DNA of 64,000 bases from Alphaproteobacteria bacterium (GTDB taxonomy: Bacteria; Desulfobacterota; Binatia; UBA12015): NCBI GenBank assembly GCA_017853315.1, contig JAFMJW010000001.1, positions 960 to 64,959 on the forward strand. Reading direction: 5' to 3'. Each line of letters begins with the position of its first letter. Position 1 is the first letter of the stretch. The notes beneath the pieces were generated by a model. That model had not been told where the DNA came from and did no database searches. It was given only the letters and a program-made list of their open reading frames with translations. Positions 8,136 through 41,333 of the stretch are shown in pieces. The translations under genes and the position numbers were made by a program.

Positions 8136-8224
8136 CGCCTCGCTCCCCTCGGCGGCCCGACGTCTTCCGTCGCCGCGAGCCTCGGAGCGACCGCGAAACC
8201 CCGGGGGGCCCGGTCCCCGGCCGC

Positions 8225-8443
8225 TCAGCCCTCGTAGAGTTTGACGACCTTCACGCCTTCGGGCGAGGCCTGCATGCACAGGTCGCACAGCGTGCACTCG
8301 TCGAGGGCGTCCTCGACCAGGTCCACGCCGTCGCCGGCCGCCTTGAAGATCTTGACCGGGCACGACTCCGCGAGCTTCGCCGCGAGTCCCGGCGTCTTGC
8401 GGATCACCGCCTGGTCGACGTCGACACGGATGAACATCGCCAT
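8225..8443 (-). CDS. Small Cys-rich protein (72 aa) with a C-x21-C-x2-C-x2-C motif, possibly Fe-S or zinc binding
   Basis: ATG at 8443 sits 2 nt downstream of the stop of the sucD-like gene at 8446-8448. Motif SCPVKIF...DECTLCDLC. It is the short C-terminal part of the artefactual long ORF 8225..9274. Confidence 0.45.
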   Translation of the reverse strand: MAMFIRVDVDQAVIRKTPGLAAKLAESCPVKIFKAAGDGVDLVEDALDECTLCDLCMQASPEGVKVVKLYEG

Positions 8444-8445
8444 GG

Positions 8446-9354: not shown

Positions 9355-9362
9355 GGCAGCCC

Positions 9363-10562: not shown

Positions 10563-10789
10563 CGCTGACGATCCTCTTCTCTCGTGTTCGAAACGCTCCG
10601 GATCCGCCCGGCCGGACGCCGGACGACGCCCCGCCGGACGCGGGACCCGCCAGCCATAGCCAAGAGCCCGGGGCATGGGAAGCGGCGGGGGGCGGCGCGC
10701 GGTTTGGCCGCCGTCGGGCCGTTGCTATCCTGCGCGGAAATCGGCGCTCGCCCGGGCGCCGCACGACCCGACAGTCAGGAGCCGAACCC
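10563..10789. promoter_or_regulatory. Divergent intergenic region between mtkA (-) and mcl (+); likely holds both promoters
   Basis: 227 nt non-coding gap between divergently oriented starts. No consensus promoter element could be read with confidence. Confidence 0.3.
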
Positions 10790-18197: not shown

Positions 18198-19123
18198 ACC
18201 TGCTGCTGGGCGCCCTCACGCTGGGCTTCATCCTCTCGCTGGTCGGGCTCGGCGTGTGGGTCTCGTTCCGCATCTTCAAGGTGGCGGACATCACGGTCGA
18301 CGGCTCGCTCACCTTCGGCGCCGCAATCACGGCCGCGCTGGTGGTCGTCCACGGCGTGAACCCGCTCGCCGCGACGCTCGCGGGGATGCTCGGGGGCATG
18401 CTCGCCGGCACGGTGACCGGGCTCCTGCAGACGCGCTTCCGGATCGACCCCCTGCTGTCGGGCATCCTCGTCATGACCGCGCTCTACTCGGTGAACCTGC
18501 GCGTCATGGGCCGCAGCAACGTGCCCTTCCTGGGCAAGCCGAGCCTGCAGACCTGGTGCGAGGAACTCGGCCGCTCCCTGCTGGGGGCACCGACGGTGGA
18601 CCTGTTCGGCTGGCCGGTCGCCGCGGGGGACCTCGCGGTGGTGATCCTCGCGGGACTCGCGGCCCTGCTCGTCGGCGCGGTCCTGTGGTGGTTCTTCCGC
18701 ACCGACCTCGGTACGGCGATGCGCGCCTCGGGCGACAACGCCCAGATGATCCGCGCGCTCGGCGCCGACGTCGAGCGCTACCGCATCCTCGGGCTCGCGC
18801 TCTCGAACGGCCTGGTCGCGCTCGGCGGCTCGCTGCTCGCGCAGTACCAGGGCTTCGCCGACGCGCAGATGGGCATCGGCATGGTCGTCTGGGGGCTCGC
18901 GTCGGTCATCATCGGCGAGGCGCTGACCGGGGCGCCGAGCCTCGGCTTCTCGATCGTCGGCACCGTCATGGGCTCGGTCTTCTTCCGCGAGCTGGTCGCG
19001 ATCGCGCTCGGCTTCGGGCTGAACCCGAACGATCTCAAGCTCGTGACCGCGGCCTTCGTGTTCGCGGCGCTGGTGCTGCCGTCGCTGCTGGGACGCGGTC
19101 GCGTGCAGGAGGTTCGCCCGTGA
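18194..19123 (+). CDS. ABC transporter permease (COG4120 / branched-chain-type fold)
   Basis: GTG at 18194 overlaps the upstream stop (GTGA). About 8 TM helices. Confidence 0.75.
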   Translation: MNLLLGALTLGFILSLVGLGVWVSFRIFKVADITVDGSLTFGAAITAALVVVHGVNPLAATLAGMLGGMLAGTVTGLLQTRFRIDPLLSGILVMTALYSVNLRVMGRSNVPFLGKPSLQTWCEELGRSLLGAPTVDLFGWPVAAGDLAVVILAGLAALLVGAVLWWFFRTDLGTAMRASGDNAQMIRALGADVERYRILGLALSNGLVALGGSLLAQYQGFADAQMGIGMVVWGLASVIIGEALTGAPSLGFSIVGTVMGSVFFRELVAIALGFGLNPNDLKLVTAAFVFAALVLPSLLGRGRVQEVRP

Positions 19124-19980
19124 GCGCGAGCGCCGAGGCCGCGCCGGCCGGGGCCGCCGCCGACGCGATGGTCCGCGTCCGCGGCGCCCGCAAGACCTTC
19201 AACGTCGGTACCCCCGAGGAAGTCCGCCCGATGCAGGGGATCGACCTCGACATCCCCGCGGGGCAGTTCGTGATCGTGCTCGGCGGCAACGGCTCGGGGA
19301 AGTCGACCCTGCTGAACGGGCTCGCCGGGACCTTCCGACTCGACGAGGGCACGATCGAGATCGACGGGCGCGACGTGACCCGCTGGCCGGAGCACCGGCG
19401 CGCGGCGCTGGTCGGCCGCGTCTTCCAGAACCCGTTCAGCGGCACGGCGCCGATGATGACGATCGCCGAGAACTTCTCGCTCGCGGCGAAGCGCGGCCGG
19501 TCGCGCGGGCTCGGCTGGGCGCTCAGCTCCTCGTTCCGCGACGAGCTGCGCGACCGCGTCCGCGGTCTCCGGATGGGCCTCGAGGACCGGATCGACACGG
19601 CGATCGGCGCGCTCTCGGGCGGCCAGCGCCAGGCCCTCACCCTGCTCATGGCGACCTGGATCGAGCCCCGGCTCCTCCTGCTCGACGAGCACACCGCCGC
19701 GCTCGACCCGAAGAGCGCAGACCAGGTCATCGCGCTCACCGACGAGATCGTCTCGTCGCGCCGGCTGACCACGCTCATGGTGACCCACGCCATGCAGCAG
19801 GCGGTGAACCTCGGCGACCGGATCCTGATGATGCACCGGGGCAACGTCCTCCACGACGTGAGCGGCCCGACCAAGCGCCGCCTGCGCGTCGACGACCTGC
19901 TCGCCCGCTTCGAGGACGTGCGCCGGCGCGAGCTGCTCGACGAGGGTGCGGCGGCGCTCCTCGCGCGCGCCTACGTCTGA
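19120..19980 (+). CDS. ABC transporter ATP-binding protein
   Basis: Walker A GGNGSGKST, signature LSGGQRQ, Walker B LLLLDEHTAALD, H-loop VTHAM. GTG at 19120 overlaps the permease stop; ATG at 19168 is an alternative start. Confidence 0.8.
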   Translation: MSASAEAAPAGAAADAMVRVRGARKTFNVGTPEEVRPMQGIDLDIPAGQFVIVLGGNGSGKSTLLNGLAGTFRLDEGTIEIDGRDVTRWPEHRRAALVGRVFQNPFSGTAPMMTIAENFSLAAKRGRSRGLGWALSSSFRDELRDRVRGLRMGLEDRIDTAIGALSGGQRQALTLLMATWIEPRLLLLDEHTAALDPKSADQVIALTDEIVSSRRLTTLMVTHAMQQAVNLGDRILMMHRGNVLHDVSGPTKRRLRVDDLLARFEDVRRRELLDEGAAALLARAYV

Positions 19981-19996: not shown

Positions 19997-21187
19997 TCAG
20001 GCGATCCGCAGCACGAGCATCGAGACGTCGTCGTCGAAGTCGTGGCGCCCCTGCTCGGCGCGCACCACGTCGAGCACGCGGTGGATGTCGGCGGTCGGCG
20101 ACGTCCGCTCGCGGCCGACGATCTCGAAGAACTCCTCGAGCGTCATCATCCCGCCCGCGGGCCGCGTGACCTCGTACGCGCCGTCGCTGAAGATCCAGAG
20201 CGCCGCGTCCGGCGGCACGGTCGTCCGCCCGCCCGCGTAGCGCGTGCCGGGCAGCGCGCCGATCGGCGCTCCCTGCGCGCGGAGCGGCTCGGCCGCGGCA
20301 CTCCCGGCGACGAGCAGCGCGGGCGGATGCCCTGCGCTCGACCACGACAGGCTGCGGTCGGACGGACGGAAGACGCCGTACCAGATCGTGAAGTACATGT
20401 CGTTCTGCCGATCCATCTGGAAGGCGTCGTTCAGCGCGGCGAGCACGGCGGCGGGGTCGCGGAAGTCGACGCCGGGCAGCGTCTGCGTGCCGAGCACGTT
20501 CATCGCGGAGACCGAGAGCAGGGCCGCGCCGACGCCGTGGCCGCACACGTCGAGCACGTAGGCGGCGAGGTGGTCGTCGTCGATCCAGTGATGGCCCAGC
20601 GAGTCGCCCCCCAGCGAGGTCGAGGGCACGAACTCCCAGGCCGACTCGATCGATCCGGAGAGGGGCACGGGCAGGAGCGAGCGGACGTAGTCGGCCGCCT
20701 CGCCGAGCTCGGCGGCGAGCGCCTGCTGGCTCGCGAGCAGGTCCTGGTAGGCTTCGTTGCGCTCGAGCAGGTGGATGTAGGCCTGCGAGTGGTAGCGGAT
20801 GCGCGCGACCAGCTCGATGCGGTCGGGCAGTTTCACCAGGTAGTCGTTCGCGCCGAGCGCGAAGGCCTCGGCCTTCGTCGTCGCCTCCTCCTTGCTCGAC
20901 AGCACGATGAGCGGCACCTCGCGCGTGGCCGGCGTCTCGCGGTAGCGGCGCACCAGCGTGAGCCCGTCGATGCCCGGCATGACGAGATCCTGGAGGATCA
21001 GCGTGGGCCGGAGCTCCACGGCCCGCGCGATCGCCTCGGCCGGGTCGCCGCACCAGTGCAGCTCGACGTCGGACTCGGAGGCGAGCATGCGCTTCACCGC
21101 CTCGGCGACGATCCTCTGGTCGTCGACCAGAAGGACGACGACGCGGTGCCCGGCGGCACCCGCGGGCCGGGCCGGCGCGTCGCTCAC
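19997..21187 (-). CDS. Response regulator (REC) fused to a PP2C-type Ser phosphatase (RsbU/SpoIIE-like)
   Basis: GTG at 21187 (verified) overlaps the cheB stop by 4 nt. REC: VLLVDDQ...LILQDLVMPGIDG...PLIVLSSK. PP2C: GGDSLGHHWIDDDHLAAYVLDVCGHGVGAA...IWYGVF...FSDG. Confidence 0.8.
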   Translation of the reverse strand: MSDAPARPAGAAGHRVVVLLVDDQRIVAEAVKRMLASESDVELHWCGDPAEAIARAVELRPTLILQDLVMPGIDGLTLVRRYRETPATREVPLIVLSSKEEATTKAEAFALGANDYLVKLPDRIELVARIRYHSQAYIHLLERNEAYQDLLASQQALAAELGEAADYVRSLLPVPLSGSIESAWEFVPSTSLGGDSLGHHWIDDDHLAAYVLDVCGHGVGAALLSVSAMNVLGTQTLPGVDFRDPAAVLAALNDAFQMDRQNDMYFTIWYGVFRPSDRSLSWSSAGHPPALLVAGSAAAEPLRAQGAPIGALPGTRYAGGRTTVPPDAALWIFSDGAYEVTRPAGGMMTLEEFFEIVGRERTSPTADIHRVLDVVRAEQGRHDFDDDVSMLVLRIA

Positions 21188-22224
21188 GGCGCGCCCGGGG
21201 CCGCGAGGCGGCGGCAGGCCGCGGCGGCGCGCGCGGCGATCGCGTCGACCGGCAGCACCTCGACCGCGGCGTCGAGCCGGACGGCCGCACCCGGCATTCC
21301 CCACACGACGCTGGTCCCCTCGTCCTGCGCGATCGTGTGCCAGCCCAGGCCGCGCAGGCGCGCGAGTCCTGCGGCGCCGTCGCGCCCCATGCCCGTCAGC
21401 AGCACCGCGCATCCCGGTCGCGAGGCGTGGTCCGCGGCGCTCGCGAAGAAGGCGTCGACCGAAGGGCGATAGGGAGTCTCCACGGGCTCGCGTACGTAGC
21501 GGAAACGGCCGTCGGACCCCAGCACGAGGTGATCGTTGGTCGCGGCGACCAGGACGCGGCCCGGCTCCGGGCGGTCGCCCGCCGCGATCGTCCGGACCCG
21601 CAGCGCCGACTGTCCGTCGAGCCAGTCGGCGAGGCCGTCGGCGAAGTGCTCGTCGACGTGCTGGACGATCACGACCGAGGCGGGCAGGTCGGCCGGCAGG
21701 TCGCGCAGGATGCGGGCGAGCGCTCCCGGGCCGCCGGTCGACGAGCCGATCGCGAGCAGGATCGGCCGGCTCGCCGCGGGCGAACACGGCGCAGCGGTCG
21801 TCGCCGCCGGGGCGGCCGCCACGGGCTCGCGCCCGACGAGCCGCCCGATCGTGCCGATCTTGCGGACCAACTCGTCCGCGCCGCGCACGTCGCCGTCGCG
21901 GCCGAGCACCGGGGTCGCGACCGCGTCGAGGGCGCCGTGGCTCATCGCCTCGTAGACCTTCGACAGGTTGCCCTGCACGGTCGCGGTGACGACCAGGATC
22001 GGGCACGGGTGGTCGCGCATGATGAGGCGCGTCGCCTCGACTCCGTCCATCGTCGGCATGACGAGGTCCATGAGCACGACGTCCGGCCGGTCCGACGCGC
22101 AGAGCGCGACCGCCTCGGCGCCGTCCTTCGCGACCCAGGCGACCTCGAGCCCCGGGGCGGCGACGATCGTGCGGCGCAGCGCCTCGGCGGCGATCCGCAG
22201 GTCGTTCACGATGCCGACCCTCAC
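21184..22224 (-). CDS. cheB: Chemotaxis response regulator protein-glutamate methylesterase CheB (REC + CheB_methylest)
   Basis: GTG at 22224 (verified; GTGA overlap with the cheA stop). REC DVVLMDLVMPTMDG; methylesterase LLAIGSSTGGPGAL...VIVQH...LLTGMGRDGAAGL. Confidence 0.85.
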   Translation of the reverse strand: MRVGIVNDLRIAAEALRRTIVAAPGLEVAWVAKDGAEAVALCASDRPDVVLMDLVMPTMDGVEATRLIMRDHPCPILVVTATVQGNLSKVYEAMSHGALDAVATPVLGRDGDVRGADELVRKIGTIGRLVGREPVAAAPAATTAAPCSPAASRPILLAIGSSTGGPGALARILRDLPADLPASVVIVQHVDEHFADGLADWLDGQSALRVRTIAAGDRPEPGRVLVAATNDHLVLGSDGRFRYVREPVETPYRPSVDAFFASAADHASRPGCAVLLTGMGRDGAAGLARLRGLGWHTIAQDEGTSVVWGMPGAAVRLDAAVEVLPVDAIAARAAAACRRLAAPGAP

Positions 22225-24638
22225 GGCGCCGCGGCCTCGCCGATCAGGTCGGCCACCGTGCGGGCGAGCGTCTCGTCGCGGAAGGCGGCCTTCGTGACGT
22301 AGTGGTTCGCGCCGGCCTCGAGGCCGCGCAGCCGGTCCTCCTCGCGGTCCTTGTACGAGACGATCACGACCGGGAGGTCGCGCAGGCGGGCGTCGGCCCG
22401 CACCGCGCGGACGAGTTCGATGCCGGTCATCCGCGGCATGTCGACGTCGCTCACGAGCAGGTCGTAGCTCCCGGCGCGGAGCGCGTTCCACGCCTCGAGT
22501 CCGTCGACCGCGACGTCCACCTCGTAGCCGCGCTGCTCGAGGAGCTGGCGCTCGACCTCGCGGACGGTGATCGAGTCGTCCGCGACGAGGATGCGCTTGG
22601 CCTGGCGCACGGCCCGGGGCGCGATCCGCGCGCGCATCCCGCCGCCTTCGAGGCGCGCCTCGATCGAGAGCACGAGGTCGTCGACGTCGAGCACGAGCAG
22701 CGGCGAGCCGTCGTCGAGCGTCGACGCCGCCGACACGTCGGCGACCTTGCCGAGGCGCGCGTCCAGCGGCCGGACGACGATCTCCCGCTCGCCCACGAAG
22801 CCGTCGACCTCGAGCGCGAAGCGCCGCGACCCGTCCGAGAGCACGACTGCCGCGCACTCGTCGCCGCGGGGGCGCTCGCCGCCGAGCTCGAGCAGGTCGC
22901 GGGCGACCACGAGCCCGACGGCCTCCCCGTCGACCGGCACGACCGCGTGCCCCTCCGAGGTGCCGACGGAGTCGGCGGGCACCCGCAGCGCGCGGTCGAT
23001 CCGCGCGAGCGGGACCGCGAAGGGCTCGCCCGCGACCTCGACCAGCAGCACCCGCAGCACCGAGCGGGTGACCGGCAGCTGGAGCTCGAAGACCGTGCCC
23101 TCCCCCGGTCGCGTGCGAACGCGCGCCGTCCCGCCCATCTGCTGCATCATCGCGAGCACGGCGTCGAGGCCGACGCCGCGGCCCGACACGTCGGTCACCT
23201 TCTCGGCGGTCGAGAAGCCGGGCAGGAAGAGGAACTCGAGCAGCTCGCTCTCCCGCAGCCGCGAGGCGACCTCGGCGGTCGCGAGCCCGCGCTCGACGAT
23301 CGTCGTGCGCAGGCGCTCGGCGTCGATGCCGCGGCCGTCGTCGCGCACCGTGACGGCGAGGCGCCCGGCCCGGTGCGCGGCCTCGATCGAGAGCCGTCCC
23401 TCCGCGGGCTTGCCCGCCGCGGCGCGGACCTCGGGCGGCTCGAGGCCGTGGTCGACCGCGTTGCGGACGAGGTGGCCGAGCGGCGCCTCGAGCCCCGCGA
23501 GCACGTCGCGGTCGACCGGCACGTCGCGCCCCGCGACCTCGAGGCGGACCTGCTTGCCGAGAGCGCGCGCGAGATCCCGCACTTGGCGTTGCAGTCCGGC
23601 CACGGCGTCCGAGAACGGGCGCATGCGGGTCGCGATCGCCTCGCCGTAGAGGCGCTCGGCGAGAGGCGCGCTGCGCCGGGCGATCGCGTCGATCGCCTCG
23701 GTGCGCTCCGCGAGCGCGTGGCGGCCGAGGTCGACCTCCCGAGCGAGAGCCTCGACCTGCGCCTCGACCTCCGCGAGCGGCCTCTGCGCCGCGATCGCCT
23801 CGCGCAGCCGTCCGAGCCGCGCGGCGATCCCGGTCTGGCGCCGCTGCACCTCGCGAACCGCGTCGGCCGCGGGGCCGATCGAGCGGGCTTCGACCAGTGC
23901 TTCGGCCGCGAGGCCGGCGAGGCGGCCCAGCGTCTCCGGCGAGACCTTGACCGCGCGCTCCTGCGGCTCGGCGGTGGCGCGACCTGCCGCGACCGGGGGG
24001 GACGCCGGCGCGGCTGCTCGCCCCGCGTCCGCCGAAGCCTGCGTCGGCACGGTCGTCGGGGCCGAGCCCGCCGTCGACCCGGACGCGGCCACCGCCACCG
24101 CGGAAGCGAGGGCGGGTTCGCCGCCCTGCCTCGCGGCTTCGCTGGGCGCGGCCGGTGCGACGGGTGCCGGCGACCCGGGCCGTGGCGCGTCCGCAGCCGG
24201 CGGCGGCGCGGCCGCGCCGTCTCTCGGGCGTGCCTCTCCGCGCAGCGCCGCGAGCGTGTCGCGCAGGCCCGCCTCGATCGTCGCGCGCTCGCCCGCGCAC
24301 GCGGCGAGCCACGCGTCGAGATCCTCGACCGGCACGTCGCGCAGCCGCGTGAGCCAGTCGACCACCGCGAGGAACGAGTCGAGCTGCTCCGGCTCGATGG
24401 CGTGGCCGGGGGCCGCGAGCATCGCCTCCTCGAGCAGGTGCGCGAGGCCGACGGCCTCGTCGAGTCCCACGAGACGCGCAGCGCCCTTCATCGAGTGTGC
24501 GGCGCGCATCAGCGGTTCGATTCCGGACGCGTCCTGCACGCCGCGCTCGAGGCGGAGCAGACCCTCGGCGAGCGCGCCCGCGTGTTCCTCGACCTCCGCG
24601 AGGAAGAGGTCGTAGAGCGAGGCGTCGACGCCGCTCAT
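22221..24638 (-). CDS. cheA: Chemotaxis histidine kinase CheA with a C-terminal receiver domain (HPt-dimerisation-HATPase_c-CheW-REC)
   Basis: ATG at 24638 (verified). HPt AAHSMKGAARLVG, kinase core VRNAVDHG...DDGRGID...GRGVGLD, CheW-like domain, C-terminal REC ILVADDS...LLVSDVDMPRMTG...VVIVSYK. Confidence 0.85.
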   Translation of the reverse strand: MSGVDASLYDLFLAEVEEHAGALAEGLLRLERGVQDASGIEPLMRAAHSMKGAARLVGLDEAVGLAHLLEEAMLAAPGHAIEPEQLDSFLAVVDWLTRLRDVPVEDLDAWLAACAGERATIEAGLRDTLAALRGEARPRDGAAAPPPAADAPRPGSPAPVAPAAPSEAARQGGEPALASAVAVAASGSTAGSAPTTVPTQASADAGRAAAPASPPVAAGRATAEPQERAVKVSPETLGRLAGLAAEALVEARSIGPAADAVREVQRRQTGIAARLGRLREAIAAQRPLAEVEAQVEALAREVDLGRHALAERTEAIDAIARRSAPLAERLYGEAIATRMRPFSDAVAGLQRQVRDLARALGKQVRLEVAGRDVPVDRDVLAGLEAPLGHLVRNAVDHGLEPPEVRAAAGKPAEGRLSIEAAHRAGRLAVTVRDDGRGIDAERLRTTIVERGLATAEVASRLRESELLEFLFLPGFSTAEKVTDVSGRGVGLDAVLAMMQQMGGTARVRTRPGEGTVFELQLPVTRSVLRVLLVEVAGEPFAVPLARIDRALRVPADSVGTSEGHAVVPVDGEAVGLVVARDLLELGGERPRGDECAAVVLSDGSRRFALEVDGFVGEREIVVRPLDARLGKVADVSAASTLDDGSPLLVLDVDDLVLSIEARLEGGGMRARIAPRAVRQAKRILVADDSITVREVERQLLEQRGYEVDVAVDGLEAWNALRAGSYDLLVSDVDMPRMTGIELVRAVRADARLRDLPVVIVSYKDREEDRLRGLEAGANHYVTKAAFRDETLARTVADLIGEAAAP

Positions 24639-25300
24639 CCGACCGCCTCCGCCAGGCGGGCGGCGAGCCTTCGTTCGTCGAGCAGCGACACGCGCCGGCC
24701 CTCTTCCTCGACGAGGCCCGAGCTCGCGGAGCCGCTCGCGAGCGCGACGGTCGAAGGGGCCGGGCGGACGTCGGACTCCGGCACGAGTCGCAGGCCCGCG
24801 ATCTCGTCGACGGTCAGCACCCAGCCCTGCCCGAGCAGCGAGACCACGAGCAGTCGCGACCGGAGGTCGGGAGTGCCCTCCACGGCGGGCACGTCGAGGA
24901 GCGCTCCGGGGTCGCAGCAGGGGAGCAGCGTCCCTCCCGCGTTCACGAGGCCCATGAAGGCGGCGCTGCTCCGGTGGGGCACGCGCCGCACCGGCCTCGG
25001 CTCGAGCACCTCGACCGCGAGGGCGGCCGCGAGCCCGAACCACTCCGAGCGGACCCGGAAGACGAGGAGGGCGCGCGCACCCGACGCCGCCTCCTCCGAA
25101 TCCTCGCCGAGGCGCGCGGACCATTCCTCGAGGTAGCCTCCCGGCGACGGACGATCGAGCAGCGCGCGCCCGCCCTCGGAATGCGCGGGGCAGTTCCGGC
25201 AGTGGACGAGAGCCTCGAGTTCGGGACAGCTGCGGTCGCCGTCGACGCCGATCCTCGCCCAGCAGCGCTCGCCGGCCGACGCGGGAAGCGCGCGCGTCAC
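24635..25300 (-). CDS. CheW-like coupling protein with an N-terminal Cys4 motif (C-x10-C-x8-C-x2-C)
   Basis: GTG at 25300 overlaps the cheR stop (GTGA); its stop overlaps the cheA ATG (ATGA). N-terminus ERCWARIGVDGDRSCPELEALVHCRNCP, then a CheW domain LLVFRVRSEWFGLAAALAVEVLEP. Confidence 0.6.
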   Translation of the reverse strand: MTRALPASAGERCWARIGVDGDRSCPELEALVHCRNCPAHSEGGRALLDRPSPGGYLEEWSARLGEDSEEAASGARALLVFRVRSEWFGLAAALAVEVLEPRPVRRVPHRSSAAFMGLVNAGGTLLPCCDPGALLDVPAVEGTPDLRSRLLVVSLLGQGWVLTVDEIAGLRLVPESDVRPAPSTVALASGSASSGLVEEEGRRVSLLDERRLAARLAEAVG

Positions 25301-26685
25301 GACCGCGCCTCGATCCGGGCCGCGCGCGCACGAAACCGCGCCGCGCCGGGACGGTCGCCCGCGCGCTCGGCGATCGCGGCCAGGTGCACGAGCGCCTCCT
25401 CGCAGGAGGGGTCGAGGTAGACGGCGCGCTCGAGGGCGGCACGGGCCTCGTCCTCCCGGCGCTCCGCGACCAGCAGTACTCCCTGCAGGAGATGCGCCTC
25501 GGCGGAGGTGGGCTCGTGCTCGAGGTGCGCGCGCACGAGGCGACTCGCCTCGTCGAGGCGGCCCGTGTCGGCGAGCCGTCGCGCCTCGGCGAGCGACGGC
25601 CGGGTTTCGGGGGCGACGCCGCGGTCGATCGCGACGCTGCCCGTCGCCTCGGCGCCGCCCCCTCTCGCGACCTCGCCGGACGCGACCCGCCCGCCGTCGG
25701 CGGCCTCTCCTGCCCGCGCCTCGGCCGCTTCGGGGCGAGTCGCGCTCGACCGGACCGGAGCAGCGGACGGCTCGCGCGTCGCCCGGATCGGCGGCAGGGG
25801 CTGCCTCGCCGTCGCCTGCTGCGCCCCGGTGCCCGCGCGCGCGGCCCCCCCGGCCGTCGCCCGCGCGGTCTCGCGGAACGGCTCCGCGCGCTCGTCCGCC
25901 GTGGCCGCGAACGCCCCCGGTGGCCCGAAGGGGCGAAATCCGAGCGCGAGCAGCGTCGGGACCTCGCTGTGGCCGACCACCAGCATGCCGCCGGGCGCGA
26001 GCAGCGAACGCAGTGCTGCGACCACCTGCCGTCGCGCGTCGCGACCCATGTAGACGAGCGCGTTGCGGCAGAAGATCGCGTCGAACGGCCCGTCGCCCGC
26101 GAGGACGGAGGCGTCGAGCAGGTTCAGGCATCGGAACTCGACCGACTCGCGAGCCTCCGACGGCGCCTCGACGAACTCGCCGCCGTCCTCGTCCGGCCGC
26201 CTCCGGAAGCGACGCGCGGCGGGCAGGTCCTGGTTGCCGCGGAAGGCCCGCAGCGGGTAGACGCCGCGGCGCGCGACCGCGAGCGCGCCCGGATCGAGGT
26301 CGCAGGCGAGCACCCGGAAGTCGCCCGGCGAGATCCCGCCGTCGAGCAGGGTCGCGGCGATCGACCACGGCTCCTCGCCCGTGGCGCACGGGAAGCTCAG
26401 CACCCGCAGCGGGAGGTGACGTTCGCGCGCCGACCGCGTGGCGAGCTTGCCGAGGAGCTCGTACGGGGCCCGGTCGCGGAACAGCCAGGTCTCGTGCACG
26501 AGAAGGCGCGCGAGGAAGCCGTCCGCCTCGGCCGGGTCGCTGCGCAGCCGCGCGACCAGTCCGTCCTCGTCCACGCCGAGCGCCGCGCAGCGCTCGACGA
26601 CGGCCGCGTCGAGCGCTCCCGCGCCCAGCGTGGAGGCGTCGAGGCCGGCGACCTCCGCGACGAATTCCGCCGCAGGGCGACTCAC
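25297..26685 (-). CDS. cheR: Chemotaxis protein methyltransferase CheR fused to C-terminal TPR repeats
   Basis: GTG at 26685 (verified; GTGA overlap with the cheW stop). CheR_N plus SAM-MT motifs LRVLSFPCATGEEPWSIA...IFCRNALVYM. C-terminal TPR-like LEHEPTSAEAHLLQGVLL...AVYLDPSCEEALVHLA. Confidence 0.8.
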   Translation of the reverse strand: MSRPAAEFVAEVAGLDASTLGAGALDAAVVERCAALGVDEDGLVARLRSDPAEADGFLARLLVHETWLFRDRAPYELLGKLATRSARERHLPLRVLSFPCATGEEPWSIAATLLDGGISPGDFRVLACDLDPGALAVARRGVYPLRAFRGNQDLPAARRFRRRPDEDGGEFVEAPSEARESVEFRCLNLLDASVLAGDGPFDAIFCRNALVYMGRDARRQVVAALRSLLAPGGMLVVGHSEVPTLLALGFRPFGPPGAFAATADERAEPFRETARATAGGAARAGTGAQQATARQPLPPIRATREPSAAPVRSSATRPEAAEARAGEAADGGRVASGEVARGGGAEATGSVAIDRGVAPETRPSLAEARRLADTGRLDEASRLVRAHLEHEPTSAEAHLLQGVLLVAERREDEARAALERAVYLDPSCEEALVHLAAIAERAGDRPGAARFRARAARIEARS

Positions 26686-27131
26686 GCCCCTGCTCCCGCG
26701 GCCGCCCGCAACAGCTCTTCGATCTCGGGAGGCAGAAGCCCCTCGGGCCGCACGAGCTGGACGAGGTCCTCTCCCTCGGAGCCGATCGAGCCGAGCCAGC
26801 GCGCGTCGGGCGAGTCGATCGGCGGCTTCGAGAGCCGCGCCGGGTCGACCTCGATCGTGTCGACGACCCGCTCGGCGCGCAGTCCCACCGGGCCCTGCGC
26901 CCGGCGCAGCACCAGGATGCGGGTGCCGAGCGCCTCGCGGCACGGCGCGCCGCCGGCCAGCGTGCCGAGGTCGAGCACCGGCACGAGCCGGCCGTGGAGG
27001 CGCAGGATTCCCGCGACGGCAGGCGGAGCGGCCGGCACCGGTCGCAGTGCGACCGACGGGACGACCGTCTCGACGTCCCGCGCGTCGAACCCCCAGAGCG
27101 AATCCCCGACCCGGCAGCAGACGACCAGCAC
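26682..27131 (-). CDS. cheW: Chemotaxis coupling protein CheW
   Basis: 149 aa single CheW domain (ILRLHGRLVPVLDLGTL...). Non-ATG (GTG-type) start at 27131. Confidence 0.75.
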   Translation of the reverse strand: MLVVCCRVGDSLWGFDARDVETVVPSVALRPVPAAPPAVAGILRLHGRLVPVLDLGTLAGGAPCREALGTRILVLRRAQGPVGLRAERVVDTIEVDPARLSKPPIDSPDARWLGSIGSEGEDLVQLVRPEGLLPPEIEELLRAAAGAGA

Positions 27132-27146
27132 GTCCCACCGCCTGGG

Positions 27147-29309
27147 TCAGCCGGTGCGGAAGCGCGACATCTCGGTCTCGATCCCGCTCACCGCGCCGCG
27201 CAGGCGAGTCGCCGCCTCGCCGAGGTCGCTCACCGCGTCGGCCGAGCGCCGGGCGACCTCGGTGAGCTGCATCATCGCCTCGTCGATCTGCCGCGCCCCG
27301 GCCGCCTGCGCCTGCATGCCGTCGTTCACGGCGGCAAACCGCGGGATGAGCGACTGCACGCCGGAGAGGATCTCGGCGAAGCGCTCGCCTGTCGCGGCGG
27401 CCTCGGCGACGCGCCGGCGGACCTCCTCGGCGAAGCGGTCCATCTCCATCACGCCGCTCGCGACCGAGCCCTGCATCTCGCGGACGATCCGCTCGATGTC
27501 GAGCGAGGCAACCGCCGTCTGGTCCGCGAGCCGGCGGATCTCGCGCGCGACCACGGCGAAGCCGCGGCCGGCCTCGCCCGCCTTCTCGGCCTCGATCGCC
27601 GCGTTCAGCGAGAGCAGGTTCGTCTGGTCGGCGACCTTGGTGATCGTGGTGACGACCGAGCCGATGCTCGCGGCGCGCTCGCTGATCGCGGCGAGCTTCG
27701 CCGAAACCCCGCCGGTCGACTCGGCGAGCCGCACCATCGCGCCCTCGAGGTCGCCGAGGCTCGAGCGGCCCGTGTCGGCCAGGCGCGCGGTCTGGTCGCT
27801 CGCTTCCTTCACGTCGGAGATCGTCCCGACCAGGTCCTGGGCCGTCGCGGAGATCTCGCGCACGGCGGCCGCGATCTGGCTCGTCGACGCGCCGACGTCG
27901 GCCACGGTCGCCTCCTGCGTCCGGGCGGCGGCCGCGACGCCCGTCGCCGTGGACACGAGATCGACGCTCGCCTGCTGCACGCGGCCGACCAGCTGGCGCA
28001 GGGAACCCAGCATCGAGCGCACGGCGAGCAGGAGGTCGCCGGTCTCGTCGGATCCCGTCGCGCCGATCTCGACGGTCAGGTCGCCCGCGGCGACGCGGTC
28101 CGCCGCGTGGGCCGCCGCGGCGACGCGGTGGACGACCCTCTGCACGGTCCGCAGCGCGAGCCCCAGCGCGAGCAGCACGCCCGGGATCGCGATCCACAGC
28201 ACCCGGTTGCGCGCGGCGACGAGCGGGGCGAGCACCTCCATCTCGTCGACCTGCATCAGCAGTCGCCAGCTCCCGGTCTGGATCCGGGTGCCGACGTAGT
28301 ACCGCTCCGGGCCGCCCTGTCTCCCCGGGGCCAGCGAGAAGAAACTCCCGTCCTGGTCGCGGAAGAGGCCCTCGAGCTCGCTCGCGATGGGAGTCTCCTC
28401 GATGCGGTGCGTGACGAGCCCGGGCTCGGCGGTGGACGCGATGACGCGGCCGCGCCGCGAGATCAGGACGAACTCCGCGCTCTTGTAGGGTCGCTTGGCC
28501 GCGAGGTCCGCGGAGATCCGGCTCACGCTGCGGTCGATGCCCGCGACGCCGACGAAGCGCTCGCCGATCTCGATCGGCCAGGTGGTCTCGACGATCAGCT
28601 CGCCCTCGTAGTCGTAGGGCTCGGTGATCATGTACCGCTCGGGATCCTCGTCGCGGCCCCAGTTCACGTCCCACAGCCGGCTCACGCCGCCCGGGAGGTT
28701 GATGCCGGTGATCTCGGGCAGGCGCGCGTAGCGATTCTTCACGCCGCGGTACCAGAGCCCGTCGTCCATGCCGGTGAGCGGCTTGACCGAGATCTCCGCG
28801 GCGTCCCGCCTCGCCCGGAACCAGTAGGGAAGGAACCGGCCCTCGGCGTCGGTCGAGCCAGCGGGCAGCTTCGCGTTCGCCGGGTCGCGGTCGTGGCCGT
28901 CGGCGTCCTTCTCGTAGCCGAAGTACGCGCCGTAGGCGCCGGGCACGGCCGCGAGCATCCTGCGGGCGAACTCGCTCGAGACCGCGCGCTGTCCGAACAG
29001 GCCGGCGGCCTGCGCCGTCGCCATCGTGTGCGCCATCGCGACGATCGTCGCGCTCTCGCGCTCGATCGAGGACGCCGCCTCCGCGACGCGGTCGCGCAGC
29101 TCGGCCTCGGTCTGCAGCCGGATGCTCGCCTCGAAGTTCCGCAGCAGGTACCAGAGCAGTCCGGCGAGCAGGGCCACGAGCGGCAGCACGCTCAGCAGGA
29201 CGAGTTTCGCGCGCAGGCCCACCCTACGCGCACCCGGGCCGTGGCCCGGGCTTGCCGGGGTCGCGGAGGACGGCATCGCCGCCTCCCCCTCCCGGTAGGC
29301 TTCAGGCAC
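27147..29309 (-). CDS. Methyl-accepting chemotaxis protein with a periplasmic Cache-like sensor, HAMP and MA domains
   Basis: TM1 [21 protein letters not shown], ~280-aa periplasmic domain, TM2, HAMP, and the highly conserved signalling domain [39 protein letters not shown] at 29309 or ATG at 29276. Confidence 0.8.
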
Positions 29310-29634
29310 CGAGCGCGTCCTCCACGCGGGCGTGCGTCGGGATGATGCTGCCGAACCCGCTGATCTCGAAGATCTCCTTCACCGCGGGCGAGAGCGAGGC
29401 GACCGAGAACGGCTGGCCGGCTCCCTTCGCGCGCTTGGCGGCGAGCAGCAGGCTGCGCAGCCCCGCGCTGCTCACGTACTCGACGCCCTTCATGTCGACG
29501 ACGACGCGAGCGCCCCCGGCGGCGGCCATCGCGTCGATCACCGCCTTCTCGAAGTCGGCGGTCGCCGTGCCGTCGAGTCGCCCCGACGCCCGCAGCACCG
29601 TCGCTCCGCGCACCTGTTCCGCTTCGATCTTCAT
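29302..29634 (-). CDS. STAS-domain anti-sigma-factor antagonist (SpoIIAA/RsbV-like)
   Basis: ATG at 29634 overlaps the stop of the upstream kinase gene (ATGA). [20 protein letters not shown]...[19 protein letters not shown], with the phosphorylatable Ser in the SSAG context. Confidence 0.8.
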
Positions 29635-30083
29635 CCGTCGCTCCTCGGGCCGCGGCCCGCCGGGGGGGGATCGAGCCGTTTCTCGATCCGGACCCGGTTC
29701 TGGTCCCCCGTCCATTCGTAATCGACCGAATCCATCGTTTTCTTGACCATGTGGATGCCGAGCCCCCCGATCCGGCGCTCTTCGAGGGGGGAATCGAGGT
29801 CGGGCGGGGGGGCGTCCCGGAGGGGGTCGAAGCGCCGGCCCCGGTCCCGGATCTCCGCCCGGAGCCGGGTTCCGTCGAGCCCGACCTCGACCTCGATCGG
29901 CTCGGTGGAGCCTCCGTGGGTGATCGCGTTCGTCAGGAGTTCGTCGAGGGCGAGGTTGACCTGGAGGAGGGGTCCCGGCGGAATCCCGTGGTCCGTGCCG
30001 AAGGTCTCGAGGAACCCGGCCAGCCGCTCGAGGGCGGAGAGGTCGGGCGGCAGCTCGATCGTTCGGGAGTCGGCCGGGCCCAT
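29631..30083 (-). CDS. Anti-sigma-factor / STAS-kinase of the RsbW/SpoIIAB family (GHKL Ser kinase)
   Basis: ATG at 30083 (verified). N-box LALDELLTNAITHG and G-box RIGGLGIHMVKKTMD. Confidence 0.75.
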   Translation of the reverse strand: MGPADSRTIELPPDLSALERLAGFLETFGTDHGIPPGPLLQVNLALDELLTNAITHGGSTEPIEVEVGLDGTRLRAEIRDRGRRFDPLRDAPPPDLDSPLEERRIGGLGIHMVKKTMDSVDYEWTGDQNRVRIEKRLDPPPAGRGPRSDG

Positions 30084-30093
30084 CCGGCCGCCC

Positions 30094-30588
30094 TCAGCGC
30101 TGTGGCTGGCCCGTGAAGGCGAGCCGGGTCTTGCCGTCCGGCCCGCCGAGCAGGAGGCGTCCGTCCTCGACCTTCCACCAGCTCGACGACGTGAGGGCGT
30201 CGAGAAACTCCCGTTCGAGCTTCATCTCGGCCTCCTCGCAGGCCATCCGCGTCCCCGCGATCGGGCCGAGCTTCCAGGAGCCGGGGCCGGACCCGACGAC
30301 TTCCGCTCCCCAGCGATTGCAGCCCGAGAATCCCGCCGCCCGCGCGCCGTCGAGGGCGAGCGTCGGCCGGCGTTCCCCGGCCGCCACGGCCTTGCCGTCG
30401 AGGTCGGAAAGCGTCCACGCGGTGCCCGCGATCGGGGCCAGGTCCGGGAGCGCCGCGACCGCGACCGTCGGTGCAGCCGCGGGAGCGACCGGGACCGGTG
30501 TGGGGCTCGCGGTCGCGCGGGCCGCGCAAGCCTGCAGGACGCAGGTCGCGGCGAGACCGAGGACGGCGGCGAACGGCTTGGCGATCAT
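30094..30588 (-). CDS. META-domain (HslJ-like) lipoprotein
   Basis: Signal plus lipobox VLQAC. The FSGCNRWGAEV / SWKLGPIAGTRMAC pattern is typical of HslJ/META (DUF306). 11 nt upstream of the kinase gene on the same strand. Confidence 0.65.
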   Translation of the reverse strand: MIAKPFAAVLGLAATCVLQACAARATASPTPVPVAPAAAPTVAVAALPDLAPIAGTAWTLSDLDGKAVAAGERRPTLALDGARAAGFSGCNRWGAEVVGSGPGSWKLGPIAGTRMACEEAEMKLEREFLDALTSSSWWKVEDGRLLLGGPDGKTRLAFTGQPQR

Positions 30589-31313
30589 GCGCGTCCGCTA
30601 CCACCCGTCGTGGGCGGCCGCCAAGCGGGCTCCCGGCCGCGGTCGTACCACGAGAGGTCGACGCGGTGGGTGCCGAAGAGCCGGTCGGGCAGCGTCGTCG
30701 CCGCCCCGAAGTTGACGCGCGCGTCGGCGTGGTGGGCGACGTGCACGAGCGGGGTCGTGAGCCAGGAGGTGAGCGCGCTCTGGTGCCAGCCCCGCGGCAC
30801 CGGCTCGTGGTTCACGTGGGTCGCGACGAGCGCCGTGATCATGAAGGCGGACACGGCCACGATCGTCGCGACGTGCACCGGGTGGAGCGCGACCAGCACG
30901 GGGAAGATGCCGAAGGCGGCGAGCGCCTCCGCGGGGTGCAGCGAGAGCGCCGTCCAGGCATCGGTCGCGGCGGAGAGGTGGTGCAGCCGGTGTACCGAGC
31001 GGAACAGCCGGCGCGTGTGCATCAGGCGGTGCAGGCCGTAGAGGTAGGTCTCGACGATCGCGAGCCAGGCCGCGCACTCGAGCGCGATCCGCGCCGGCGA
31101 GACCGCCCCCGTCGCCACCCGGAGCCGGCCCGAGAGGACGAGGATCGTCGTCGCGGTGCCCAGCGTCAGGATGATCGCGATCGTGGTCCAGGCGAGTCGC
31201 CTCTCCCGCCTGCGCACGTCGGCACCCGGGACGACGTCGACGATCGGACGTCGGGGGCCGGGCGCCCCGCGCGGGATCGCGTCCACCGCCGCGTGTTCGA
31301 TGGACCGGGGCAT
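30585..31313 (-). CDS. Fatty acid hydroxylase / sterol desaturase superfamily membrane protein (His-box di-iron enzyme)
   Basis: ATG at 31313 (verified). His boxes HRLMH, HRLHH, HVAHH with 3-4 TM helices. 4-nt overlap with the downstream HslJ-like gene. Confidence 0.7.
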   Translation of the reverse strand: MPRSIEHAAVDAIPRGAPGPRRPIVDVVPGADVRRRERRLAWTTIAIILTLGTATTILVLSGRLRVATGAVSPARIALECAAWLAIVETYLYGLHRLMHTRRLFRSVHRLHHLSAATDAWTALSLHPAEALAAFGIFPVLVALHPVHVATIVAVSAFMITALVATHVNHEPVPRGWHQSALTSWLTTPLVHVAHHADARVNFGAATTLPDRLFGTHRVDLSWYDRGREPAWRPPTTGGSGRA

Positions 31314-31536: not shown

Positions 31537-33876
31537 TCAGGGCGTGGGCGTCGGCGTCGGCGCGACCGGCGGGAAGTCCGACTGGGCCCGCGACTCGAAG
31601 TCGTCCATGAAGACGGTGCCGGTCGCGGACAGGCCGAGCCCGCCGAGGAAGCCGAGCTGGATGCCGTCGATGAACACCTGGTCGTTCGGAACGCCGCTCA
31701 CCGACTGGGTGGTCCCGTTCACCTTCAGGGTGAACGAGCCGTCGTTCGTGCCCGGCCCGGTCGCCTTCACCCAGTCGATCTCGATCGCCGACCATCCCGG
31801 CTTCACGAGCGGGATCTTCGCGGTCGGGAAATTCGCGGCGTCGCCGTTGCTGCGGGCAATGCCGAAGATCTGCCAGCTGTTCGGCGCCGTGTACTGCAGG
31901 CGAAGCTCGAACGGCCGCGCTGCCGGGTCGCCCGCGAGCCGACCCGTCATCATGCGCAGGACGCGGCTCGTCGGCACCGAGAGCGTGTTCAGGTTCAGGA
32001 AGAAGCGCGCCCGGTAGCGATCCTCGAGCGCGGGCGAGGTGTCCTTCACCCACAGCTTCGCCTTGTTCGACGGCGGCGGCAGTCCCTCCGGACTGAAGAG
32101 AAGGCCCTCGGTGCCCGTGAACGCCGCCAGCGGGGACACGTACATGTGCGGCGGCGGCGCCTTGTCCGAGACCTTCGTCCACTTGTTCAGGTTCCCCGAC
32201 TCGAAGTTGTCGAAGAAGATGATGTCGAACGGCGTCGGAGTCGCGACCGGCGTCGGGGTCGCCACCGGCGTCGGGGTCGCCACCGGCGTCGGGGTCGGGA
32301 CCGGCGTCGGGGTCGGGGTCGCCGTCGGAACGGGCGTCGGGGTGGGCGTCGGCGTGGGCGTGGGCGTCGGGGCCGCCGGGCAGGCCGGGATCGTCCCGTC
32401 GACCGTGACCGTCGCCGCGGGGGTGACGTTTCCGGTCAGCGTCGGTGCGCCGCTGCGCATCCGGATGACGTTCACGCCTCCGCTCGAGCCCGCGAGCATC
32501 TGGCCCGCGATCGTGACCGACTGGCTCGCCGTGATCGTGTTCGTGCCCGCCGACCGCGAGTCCGCGTTGCCCGCCGGGGTCGAGGTGATGTTCACGTTGC
32601 ACGCTTCGAGCGTGATGGTGCCCGAGATGCTGGTCTTCAGGACGCCGGACAGCGTGATCGTGCCGTAGGTGGAATGGATGTCCGCCGCGCCGCCGCCGCC
32701 GTTGCCGGTCAGGTTGACGGTGCGCAGCAGCGTGCTGCCCTCGGCGTAGACGTCCATCGTCCCGCCGAACCCGGCGTAGTCGCCGGTTCCGGGGCCGACC
32801 GCGTCGATCGCCGTCGCCGTCGCCTGGGTGAAGGTCGTGATCGCGTAGACCGTGATGTAGCCGCCGCCGCAGGCCGTGCCGCCGTTCAGCGTGACGTCGG
32901 CGTTGATCGCGATCGCGTCCCCGGAATCGAGGGTCAGGTCGCCGCCGTCGCCGCATTGGAACTCGATGCCCGAGCCGCCGTTGCTGGAGAGGGCGCCGCC
33001 GATCGTGATCGGTCCCTGGTCGTTCGTGATGTCGATCGAGCCGCCGTAGCCGTCGGGGTTGCCGCCGTCGGCCGAGATCCTCCTGCTCGTCGTGATGGAG
33101 CCGGCCGAGGTGAAGATGCTGACCGCGCCGCCGCTGCCCGGGCCCGACGTGTCGAGCGCGCCGCCGTTGGTGCCGCCGATCGTCACGCCCGTGGCCGCCG
33201 CGATGTCGATCCCGCCGCCGAAGGCGAAGGTGCCCGCGGCGCCCGCCGAGATGTCGCGCTCGACCTGGACGTCGGCGCCGGCCGTGATGTCGACCGTGCC
33301 GGCCGCGGAATCGCTGCCGGAAGCGCTCACGTCGATCAGGCCGTTCAGGACCACGCGGCCGGTCGCGCTCAGGCTCAGGTAGCCGGCGTTCAGCCCGCTC
33401 AGGTTGATGCGCGAGATGTTGCTGCTCGCCGACTGCATCTCGATGTTGCCGTCGGTCGCCGTGATCGTGACCACGGCGTCGTCGCCGTTGCCGAAGATCC
33501 CGGACTTCGCCTGGAACGTGACCGACTTGGCGATCATGTCGACCGCTCGCGTCATGCCGCCGGCGGCGAGCGTCAGGAGCGAGTTCGTCGTGACGACGAC
33601 GTCGGAGGCCCCGAAGTCGAGCGTGCTCGGCACGGTCACCACCGGCAGGCCGGAGATGTTGCACGTGGTGCCGGCCGTCCAGCCGGCCTGGCACACGTCC
33701 GCGGCGACGGTGGCGTTCGCACGGACGGGCAGGCCGAGCAGCGCGGACGCGAGCACGACGGCTGCGGTCGCCGCGCGGCGGGCCGCGGGACCGGGACTCG
33801 AGGTCGATCGATTCAAGGGGAAACCTCCCGGAGCGGCCCGAGGGCGCTCCTTCCAGATGTCCGATCCTCCTAGCAT
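31537..33876 (-). CDS. Large secreted protein: signal peptide, Gly/Thr/Ser-rich parallel beta-helix-like repeats, PT-rich linker, C-terminal ~200-aa domain
   Basis: ATG at 33876 (verified) inside ORF 31537..34644. Signal AAVVLASALLGLPVRANA. Repetitive TITATDGNIE / GGSIDITNDQGPITIGG segments. Linker PTPTPTPTPTPVPTATPTPTPVPTPTPVATPTPVATPTP. The C-terminal domain contains W/F/Y-rich segments. Confidence 0.65.
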   Translation of the reverse strand: MLGGSDIWKERPRAAPGGFPLNRSTSSPGPAARRAATAAVVLASALLGLPVRANATVAADVCQAGWTAGTTCNISGLPVVTVPSTLDFGASDVVVTTNSLLTLAAGGMTRAVDMIAKSVTFQAKSGIFGNGDDAVVTITATDGNIEMQSASSNISRINLSGLNAGYLSLSATGRVVLNGLIDVSASGSDSAAGTVDITAGADVQVERDISAGAAGTFAFGGGIDIAAATGVTIGGTNGGALDTSGPGSGGAVSIFTSAGSITTSRRISADGGNPDGYGGSIDITNDQGPITIGGALSSNGGSGIEFQCGDGGDLTLDSGDAIAINADVTLNGGTACGGGYITVYAITTFTQATATAIDAVGPGTGDYAGFGGTMDVYAEGSTLLRTVNLTGNGGGGAADIHSTYGTITLSGVLKTSISGTITLEACNVNITSTPAGNADSRSAGTNTITASQSVTIAGQMLAGSSGGVNVIRMRSGAPTLTGNVTPAATVTVDGTIPACPAAPTPTPTPTPTPTPVPTATPTPTPVPTPTPVATPTPVATPTPVATPTPFDIIFFDNFESGNLNKWTKVSDKAPPPHMYVSPLAAFTGTEGLLFSPEGLPPPSNKAKLWVKDTSPALEDRYRARFFLNLNTLSVPTSRVLRMMTGRLAGDPAARPFELRLQYTAPNSWQIFGIARSNGDAANFPTAKIPLVKPGWSAIEIDWVKATGPGTNDGSFTLKVNGTTQSVSGVPNDQVFIDGIQLGFLGGLGLSATGTVFMDDFESRAQSDFPPVAPTPTPTP
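32225..32390 (-). repeat. Low-complexity Pro-Thr (PT) linker-encoding repeat, ~12-18-nt periodic ggcgtcggggtcgcc units
   Basis: Seen directly in the sequence; encodes the (PT)n / PTPVATPT linker. Confidence 0.7.
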
Positions 33877-41266: not shown

Positions 41267-41333
41267 CGACTCCTCGTCCGCGGTACCCGAAAGGGCGCGA
41301 AATTTCGACGTGTCGACCGGAACGGAGGCTCCC

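Follow-up and report, generated by a model that had tools for sequence, protein, structure and literature searches.

A Wsp-type chemosensory operon with a phosphatase output and a candidate STAS target in a convergent ABC transporter operon

The DNA analysed here (the window) is a 64-kb stretch of contig JAFMJW010000001.1, from an organism deposited as an Alphaproteobacteria bacterium. On its minus strand, positions 19997-30083 hold a nine-gene operon which, judged by sequence, encodes a chemosensory pathway of the Wsp type, within the alternative cellular function (ACF) class, together with a serine kinase and a small STAS protein of the partner-switching kind. The pathway ends in a response regulator that joins a receiver (REC) domain to a PP2C phosphatase domain. 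It is probable that phosphatase, kinase and STAS protein form a partner switch that releases no sigma factor; the proposed target is a second STAS protein, here named STAS-X, encoded in a convergent ABC transporter operon. The proposal is based on the genes present and their domains, on the conservation of catalytic and phospho-acceptor residues, and on linkage across phyla.

Gene content and class of the operon

The nine genes, in the order in which they are read, are:

29631-30083, minus: RsbW/SpoIIAB-like GHKL serine kinase, 150 aa (HATPase_c_2, PF13581, 1.3e-24)
29302-29634, minus: single-domain STAS protein of the RsbV/SpoIIAA type, 110 aa (STAS 5.7e-18; TIGR00377 above cut-off)
27147-29309, minus: dCache-HAMP-MCP transmembrane chemoreceptor (Pfam HAMP and MCPsignal; alternative start ATG 29276)
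26682-27131, minus: CheW in the WspB position (Pfam CheW 1.3e-21)
25297-26685, minus: CheR with C-terminal TPR, WspC type (CheR 4.5e-32)
24635-25300, minus: WspD-like CheW with an N-terminal extension (Pfam CheW 9.6e-17)
22221-24638, minus: hybrid CheA, Hpt-HATPase_c-CheW-REC, WspE type (Pfam; HSMKG phospho-histidine motif in the translation)
21184-22224, minus: CheB methylesterase in the WspF position (CheB_methylest 1.9e-55 plus REC; NF009206 449.9 bits, above cut-off)
19997-21187, minus: REC-PP2C response regulator (REC 2.6e-21; SpoIIE 4.3e-42, PF07228 full length)

The window has a G+C content of 72-77%, and lists of its open reading frames (ORFs) are hence crowded with spurious frames. 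The nine genes are nevertheless real, as the original prediction had assumed: codon-position analysis gives a G+C content at third positions (GC3) of 0.90-0.97, which is of the coding type, and public gene calls made independently on identical metagenome contigs agree with the nine-gene model. All nine predicted domain assignments were also confirmed, by Pfam except for the Cache domain of the receptor. Pfam misses this domain in the whole protein, and the isolated periplasmic region gives only dCache_1 at E=0.044. When a profile of the periplasmic domain was built from five sequences and run against PDB, it matched the double-PDC sensor 3LI8 (E=9e-45) and many dCache chemoreceptors, which upholds the Cache call.

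Residues 15-157 of the REC-PP2C protein, comprising the receiver and a helical stalk, align without gaps with Pseudomonas aeruginosa WspR (3BRE) at 64% identity (E=7e-57). Receiver and stalk are 63% identical to P. syringae WspR (3I5A), while ordinary receivers match the receiver at about 1e-20 only. Across 28 homologues, the receiver residues D22, D23, D67, S97 and K119 are invariant, as are the PP2C metal-binding aspartates D195, D213, D335, D386 and D387. The output regulator can be described as a WspR receiver and stalk with a PP2C phosphatase in place of GGDEF. Wsp proper was considered and rejected; the output domain is SpoIIE/PP2C and there is no GGDEF match, hence no diguanylate cyclase.

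The gene order MCP-CheW-CheR/TPR-WspD-like CheW-CheA/REC-CheB-REC/output equals that of Pseudomonas wspABCDEFR. Several ACF features are present: MCP, CheW, CheA, CheR and CheB in one cluster, a CheR-TPR, a hybrid CheA-REC, a WspD-like CheW and a multidomain output regulator. On gene order and domain content, the operon is assigned to the Wsp-type (ACF-class) pathways. TPR matches in CheR (TPR_16, TPR_14 and TPR_2) fall at residues 365-445; CheR-TPR is a marker of ACF pathways (PMC3447774). The operon shares with Pseudomonas Wsp the seven-gene order, CheR-TPR (WspC), the WspD-like CheW, CheA-REC (WspE), CheB (WspF) and the WspR receiver and stalk. It differs in having PP2C rather than GGDEF, a dCache receptor, kinase and STAS genes in front and no cyclic di-GMP enzyme. 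REC-Ser/Thr-phosphatase regulators in CheR-TPR clusters were already catalogued in ACF surveys of 2010-2012 (PMC3447774). As a kind, the chemosensory-to-PP2C architecture had been catalogued before, though it is uncharacterised; no experimental study of a Wsp-like/PP2C pathway was found in the open-access literature.

Genomes were scanned with the phosphatase, using one genome per species and 10-kb flanks, and this gave 80 loci. In 74 of them, Che genes were found no more than 10 kb from the phosphatase gene; three of the six loci without Che genes are truncated contigs. The Che genes are almost always directly upstream of the phosphatase and keep the seven-gene order as far as the contigs reach; a complete contiguous seven-gene block was detected in 24 loci. 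Block and phosphatase occur in at least ten phyla, with hosts among the Desulfobacterota, Verrucomicrobiota, Planctomycetota, Chlamydiota, Lentisphaerota, Acidobacteriota, Latescibacterota, Ignavibacteriota, Elusimicrobiota and Gammaproteobacteria; the Methylococcaceae are among the carriers. REC-PP2C is the best-conserved protein of the block (median identity across phyla 55%, vs 32-35% for CheW, CheR and WspD). The ligand-binding domain of the receptor is not conserved and is common to only 3 of the 80 loci. De novo clustering of unassigned ORFs in the 80 loci yielded no further conserved neighbour of the block.

Close REC-PP2C homologues (51-54%) were also seen in four metagenome-assembled genomes (MAGs) of Chlamydiales/Parachlamydiaceae (L014, L025, L031 and L037). 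Three of these four loci have adjoining Che genes; L025 and L031 have a block without a detected MCP, and L037 has only WspD and CheA. The Rsb partner switch known from pathogenic chlamydiae may lend these loci some interest.

The second CheW, whose homologues are named 'chemotaxis-related protein WspD' by JGI, contains the cysteine motif that the original prediction called Cys4. The motif is real; it reads C13-x11-C25-x7-H33-C34-x2-C37 and is invariant in 21 homologues. A Cys/His motif of this kind was found in the N-terminal 40 residues in 40 of the 57 related loci with a WspD-like gene, in several phyla. It resembles a zinc or iron-sulfur site, which would place such a site in a chemosensory scaffold protein. 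No paper describing a WspD cysteine motif was found in the open-access literature.

The operon is tightly packed. A 4-nt overlap had been claimed for every junction; this holds for six of the eight (ATGA or GTGA), but not for STAS/MCP or MCP/CheW. At the STAS/MCP junction there is either an 8-nt overlap (GTGCCTGA), if the receptor starts at GTG 29309, or a 25-nt gap, if it starts at ATG 29276, which is preceded by GGGAGG; MCP and CheW are separated by a 15-nt spacer. In the rest of the window 6 of 35 same-strand junctions have a 4-nt overlap, on approximate gene models, a far lower rate than in the operon. Of the coupled, stoichiometric translation that had been read from the overlaps, the coupling stands; equal stoichiometry does not, as overlaps show coupling only. 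In other lineages the same genes are separated by gaps of 50-120 nt; the overlaps are therefore a property of a compact high-GC lineage and not of the system.

The kinase-STAS pair and STAS-X

The first two genes of the operon supply the remaining parts of a partner switch. The N-box of the kinase, ELLTNAITHG, aligns with that of SpoIIAB, and NCBIfam anti-sigma kinase families match the protein only below cut-off. The STAS gene overlaps the kinase stop codon by ATGA. The predicted phospho-site of the small STAS protein is Ser56, which falls on the phospho-serine when the protein is aligned with SpoIIAA (1TH8). The claim that a partner-switch output stands in the place of CheY is supported by domain content, conservation of catalytic residues and comparative genomics.

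Iterated hidden Markov model (HMM) searches found STAS and/or kinase genes in 14 of the 80 Che loci, a lower bound because the fetched flanks scarcely pass the MCP gene. Most of these genes directly flank the block. L017 (Latescibacterota) and L069 (Acidobacteriota) have all nine genes in exactly this order, so that with the window the arrangement is known from three phyla. In L009, L010, L015, L019 and L077, STAS/kinase genes are directly downstream of the phosphatase; the same is true of L068, where the Che block is divergent. In L023, L032 and L085 the kinase gene immediately precedes CheW. The linkage is thus recurrent while its position shifts across phyla, which is good evidence of a functional tie to the Che block. 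Distant homologues of the kinase are encoded in kinase-STAS pairs beside other sensors; in the three contexts examined, no sigma factor gene adjoins the pair.

Some of these loci have further peculiarities. L023, L032 and L085, from Methylococcaceae/Pseudomonadota MAGs, have no MCP gene in the block by tblastn; the receptor of these variants may be encoded elsewhere. Directly downstream of REC-PP2C, L077 encodes (7854-10124, plus) a 756-aa fusion of STAS with part of the X domain described below, and the C-terminal region of this fusion has an aminoglycoside-phosphotransferase/kinase-like HGDLNLQN...IDF motif. Beside REC-PP2C in L033 (1624-2703, minus) and L074 (9150-9953, minus) are ORFs with an Hpt-like N-terminus (AHSIKGAARIVG) and a STAS-like C-terminus; these may be CheA-derived Hpt-STAS fusions.

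The original prediction regarded the target of the STAS protein as open. It is not entirely so, as a gene for a second STAS protein lies 1.8 kb away from that of the phosphatase. It is part of an ABC operon that runs towards the Che operon, with 17 nt between the end of the ABC operon and the PP2C stop codon. The genes of the ABC operon are:

14672-16915, plus: membrane-anchored double substrate-binding protein (two PF04392 domains; ABC_sub_bind 2.6e-88, two stretches)
16920-18197, plus: STAS-X, 425 aa, STAS plus an acetolactate-decarboxylase/C11orf54-like zinc-fold domain (found by STAS HMM)
18194-19123, plus: ABC permease (BPD_transp_2, Pfam 8.7e-31)
19120-19980, plus: ABC transporter ATPase (ABC_tran 2.8e-27)

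The substrate-binding protein, 747 aa in the public gene call, is TrpX-like (NF041285 TrpX-type 2e-86, below cut-off). STAS-X is encoded between it and the permease. The STAS-X family has at least 359 representative clusters (E<=1e-30), all of about 410 aa. Its STAS domain is nearest to SpoIIAA/RsbV; in the stretch S54-S55-x-G57 the residues S54, S55 and G57 are invariant, and Ser55 is the predicted phospho-site.

The second domain of the protein (the X domain) has no Pfam family in any of 51 STAS-X members. A ten-sequence profile found no sequence homologue in PDB, and the domain has no profile similarity to the REC-PP2C alignment. In a predicted model, its fold resembles the zinc-enzyme fold of acetolactate decarboxylase and DUF1907; a confident model was obtained only from the 51-sequence alignment, as the single-sequence AlphaFold2 model had a pLDDT below 50 for the domain. 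Neither acetolactate decarboxylase nor human C11orf54 (beta-keto-L-gulonate decarboxylase, DUF1907) is detectably similar to it in sequence. H360-x-H362 is invariant. H396, E285, D400 and R402 are invariant in 18 sequences and invariant or at least 90% conserved in 51; the spacing to the third conserved His differs from that in acetolactate decarboxylase and C11orf54.

Metagenomes were also scanned with STAS-X, and 29 loci were found. STAS-X lies inside this type of ABC operon, between substrate-binding protein and permease, in every metagenome locus long enough to show neighbours, as it does in the window and in L016, a Verrucomicrobiia MAG. In nine metagenome loci, from other lineages, it adjoins an RsbW-like kinase and/or a PP2C. 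The PP2Cs beside STAS-X have different sensor domains, cNMP-binding in L100 and L106 and GAF in L115; in L104 a REC-type PP2C is found with a dCache hybrid histidine kinase. L111 has fragments of Che genes and a kinase gene, and STAS-X comes directly after the kinase gene in L110 and L117. STAS-X is the sole STAS gene detected near the kinase in L100, L104, L106, L110 and L117. A conserved output module that takes its signals from interchangeable inputs would be expected to show just such an association with varied sensor-PP2Cs.

The supercluster of the window recurs in L016: a Che block that ends in REC-PP2C is convergent with an operon for substrate-binding protein, STAS-X, permease and ATPase. 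The identities to the window proteins are 41% for STAS-X and 68% each for permease and ATPase. Here the small STAS gene is at the end of the ABC operon, with the kinase gene divergent from it. No paper describing a STAS fusion to an acetolactate-decarboxylase fold, or a partner switch acting on a STAS-ABC system, was found in the open-access literature.

Proposed mechanism and alternative explanations

We infer from sequence the phosphotransfer steps, the sign of regulation and the role of STAS-X as a substrate in the following scheme. The dCache chemoreceptor would bind a periplasmic small molecule and, with CheW and the WspD-like CheW, would control the hybrid CheA; the receptor would adapt by methylation through CheR-TPR and CheB. 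Phosphorylated CheA would phosphorylate the receiver of REC-PP2C, and oligomerisation via the stalk would alter, most likely raise, phosphatase activity. The phosphatase would oppose a constitutive kinase and so set the phosphorylation of Ser56 in the small STAS protein. Up to this point, the steps follow known Wsp, RsbU/RsbY-type phosphatases and RsbW/RsbV. The same kinase and phosphatase may also set the phosphorylation of Ser55 in STAS-X; the small STAS protein would then compete as a partner for the kinase, and no sigma factor would be released. The output would be post-translational control of uptake or catabolism, through gating of the ABC importer, the decarboxylase-like enzyme or both.

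STAS-X is the strongest candidate for the protein on which kinase and phosphatase act. The chances are about even that this enzyme pair acts on Ser55, with the small STAS protein competing and the importer or enzyme being gated. A wider reading is more tentative and falls somewhat short of even chances: the chemoreceptor array may control uptake or catabolism directly and post-translationally via STAS-X, as one case of an unrecognised class of partner-switch output with interchangeable sensors (Che, hybrid kinases, cNMP- and GAF-PP2Cs).

A number of observations weigh against STAS-X as the target. Among the 80 Che/REC-PP2C loci, only L016 has the STAS-X ABC operon; in 66 of the 80, no STAS or kinase gene was seen in the 10-kb flanks. 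Linkage of the Che block to such an output is thus lineage-specific and may stem from co-transfer. Neither kinase nor PP2C was found at the STAS-X loci L099, L112 and perhaps L101, which have usable flanks. A zinc site in the X domain is likely from its conserved residues, with a putative third ligand. Finally, a sigma factor may be encoded outside the 64-kb window.

This last point leads to the more conventional explanation, in which the partner switch is canonical and its target unlinked: the kinase would act as anti-sigma factor on a sigma factor whose gene lies elsewhere in the genome, after the manner of RsbW-sigmaB in Bacillus or CrsR-RpoS in Shewanella, and the ABC/STAS-X operon would be a separate client or unrelated. 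It is consistent with the size of the kinase, which is that of SpoIIAB/RsbW, and with its matches to those families below cut-off. It also fits the absence of STAS-X near most Che/REC-PP2C loci, and RpoS is what is controlled in the best-studied partner switch with a chemosensory link, Shewanella Che1-CrsR-CrsA (PMC9855816). The sigma factor searches argue the other way. With Escherichia coli RpoE and Bacillus subtilis SigB as queries, phmmer found no sigma-70-family member among the ORFs of the entire window. No sigma-70-type protein emerged when ORFs of sigma factor size were scanned with Pfam, and a further scan found only rpoN (sigma-54) at 58268-59842, 28 kb away, the sole sigma factor gene found in the window. 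The original prediction of no cognate sigma factor nearby holds for the sigma-70 type; rpoN is present, in a housekeeping cluster. A comparison of neighbourhoods, which had been suggested, showed the seven-gene block to be conserved in at least ten phyla and gave no recurring sigma factor in the Che loci examined. No sigma factor gene adjoins the kinase-STAS pair in the three other contexts. STAS-X operons repeatedly come with an RsbW-like kinase and a PP2C of their own, and among the neighbours examined no sigma gene was identified. An unlinked sigma factor is considered unlikely on this evidence. As to rpoN itself, the canonical cluster lptC-lptA-lptB-rpoN-hpf-ptsN at 56020-60661 (plus) is its usual housekeeping context.

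It is quite improbable that the ABC/STAS-X operon feeds a further input into the switch instead of being its output. In that case transport, or occupancy of the decarboxylase-like domain by a metabolite, would alter the competition of STAS-X for the kinase, and the small STAS protein would integrate both signals. The X domain has a ligand- or zinc-binding enzyme fold, the substrate-binding protein is duplicated and membrane-anchored, and partner switches commonly integrate several STAS inputs (RsbR/RsbS/RsbV), all of which would suit such a role; the five metagenome loci in which STAS-X is the sole STAS gene leave no separate output STAS protein. Even less probable, to the point of being very hard to credit, is that the kinase-STAS pair is independent of the Che genes, being transcribed or used separately, and adjoins them by chance or operon packing. 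Most related Che blocks lack the pair in their flanks and distant kinase homologues work with other sensors, as independence would have it. On the other side, the STAS stop codon overlaps the MCP start or is 25 nt from it. No terminator was found at this junction, which has no room for one; promoter and terminator scans gave no matches and are uninformative at 74% GC. The nine-gene order is the same in three phyla, other block-flanking arrangements occur in further phyla, and in L016 the pair has been redistributed around the same supercluster. The Wsp-type operon with a partner switch acting on STAS-X is preferred to these alternatives.

Known systems, neighbouring genes and significance

The B. 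cereus system RsbK-RsbY-RsbM with RsbV-RsbW-sigmaB (PMC4574943) is similar to that of the window in several respects. RsbY of B. cereus is a REC-PP2C protein driven by RsbK, which is modulated by methylation through the CheR-like RsbM, and it acts on RsbV/RsbW. Both systems have a REC-PP2C regulator, a methylation-modulated input and an RsbV/RsbW-type pair. They differ in that the B. cereus sensor is a single hybrid histidine kinase, not an array of receptor, CheW and CheA, and in that its target, sigmaB, is encoded in the same locus; no sigma factor gene is near the window operon.

Coupling of a Che cluster to a STAS/phosphatase/kinase switch is also seen in Shewanella oneidensis Che1 and in the Vibrio and Pseudomonas F7 'stage 1-2' clusters (PMC9855816, PMC7184735). 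Unlike the window operon, Shewanella Che1 is of class F7, with Aer2/McpA receptors and a separate CheY; its CrsR fuses phosphatase and kinase in a three-domain protein, and the target is RpoS.

Other partner switches have outputs that are not sigma factors, among them P. aeruginosa SiaABCD (PMC7647112, PMC8457831) and HptB-HsbR-HsbA. In these, a PP2C, a kinase and a small phosphorylatable partner control an enzyme or other protein, as is proposed here. These systems have no chemoreceptor array, and their targets are a diguanylate cyclase and FlgM.

MlaB is a precedent for a STAS protein at an ABC transporter. It regulates the ABC ATPase MlaF, and phospho-regulation at the equivalent Ser/Thr has only been proposed (PMC7367683). 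For both MlaB and STAS-X, the gene is part of an operon for an ABC transporter. MlaB consists of one STAS domain and no kinase is known for it; STAS-X stands closer to SpoIIAA/RsbV than to MlaB, has an enzyme-like domain of about 300 aa and belongs with a TrpXYZ-type importer, and any binding of STAS-X to the ATPase is hypothetical.

Two genes lie immediately upstream of the kinase on the same strand:

30585-31313, minus: FA_hydroxylase-family membrane protein (Pfam FA_hydroxylase 2.5e-21; ATGA overlap with the META gene)
30094-30588, minus: META-domain lipoprotein (Pfam META 3e-22; lipoprotein-like N-terminus; 8 nt upstream of the kinase ATG)

The operon probably extends to these genes, with FA_hydroxylase as the first. 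Both are retained in the relative L005 (76% identical), and META is also retained in L001 and L002. An FA_hydroxylase/META pair at the operon front recalls the desaturase of the Myxococcus Che7 cluster. A myxococcotal origin, which the original prediction had guessed, was rejected, as the closest named relatives are Alphaproteobacteria MAGs. The source organism, known from a metagenome of freshwater type, is probably an alphaproteobacterium that has not been cultured.

Elsewhere in the window, two large secreted-looking proteins (44008-46194 and 35602-37695, both minus) contain domain families unusual for a bacterium. One has four Disintegrin-domain matches and a beta-helix; the other has DUF4215, thrombospondin type-3 and M66-peptidase-like matches. 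Three long ORFs have strong coding GC3 and no Pfam match: 31537-33816 (minus, 759 aa), 41310-43958 (plus, 882 aa) and 4224-6290 (plus, 688 aa). The first of these lies close to the operon on its upstream side and has been retained in L005. At 8446-11839, succinyl-CoA-ligase-like alpha and beta genes adjoin an HpcH/HpaI lyase gene (malate thiokinase/malyl-CoA lyase-like), which hints at C1/C2 metabolism of the serine-cycle or glyoxylate type in the host.

ACF chemosensory pathways are common in genomes, and outputs are known for only a handful. The Wsp-like block with REC-PP2C is a very widespread and highly conserved subclass, found also in environmental chlamydiae. The window adds a member of this kind in which all partner-switch parts are operonic; the new element is its link with an ABC operon that encodes a STAS-decarboxylase-fold protein, a link that none of the papers searched describes. 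Since the genes for the kinase, the STAS substrate and a plausible effector all adjoin those of the pathway, it can be tested directly which protein the phosphatase acts on. If the link holds, it would provide a natural case of phospho-regulated STAS control of ABC transport, so far hypothesised only for MlaB. It would also add a non-transcriptional output to partner switching and assign a context to the undescribed STAS-X protein family.

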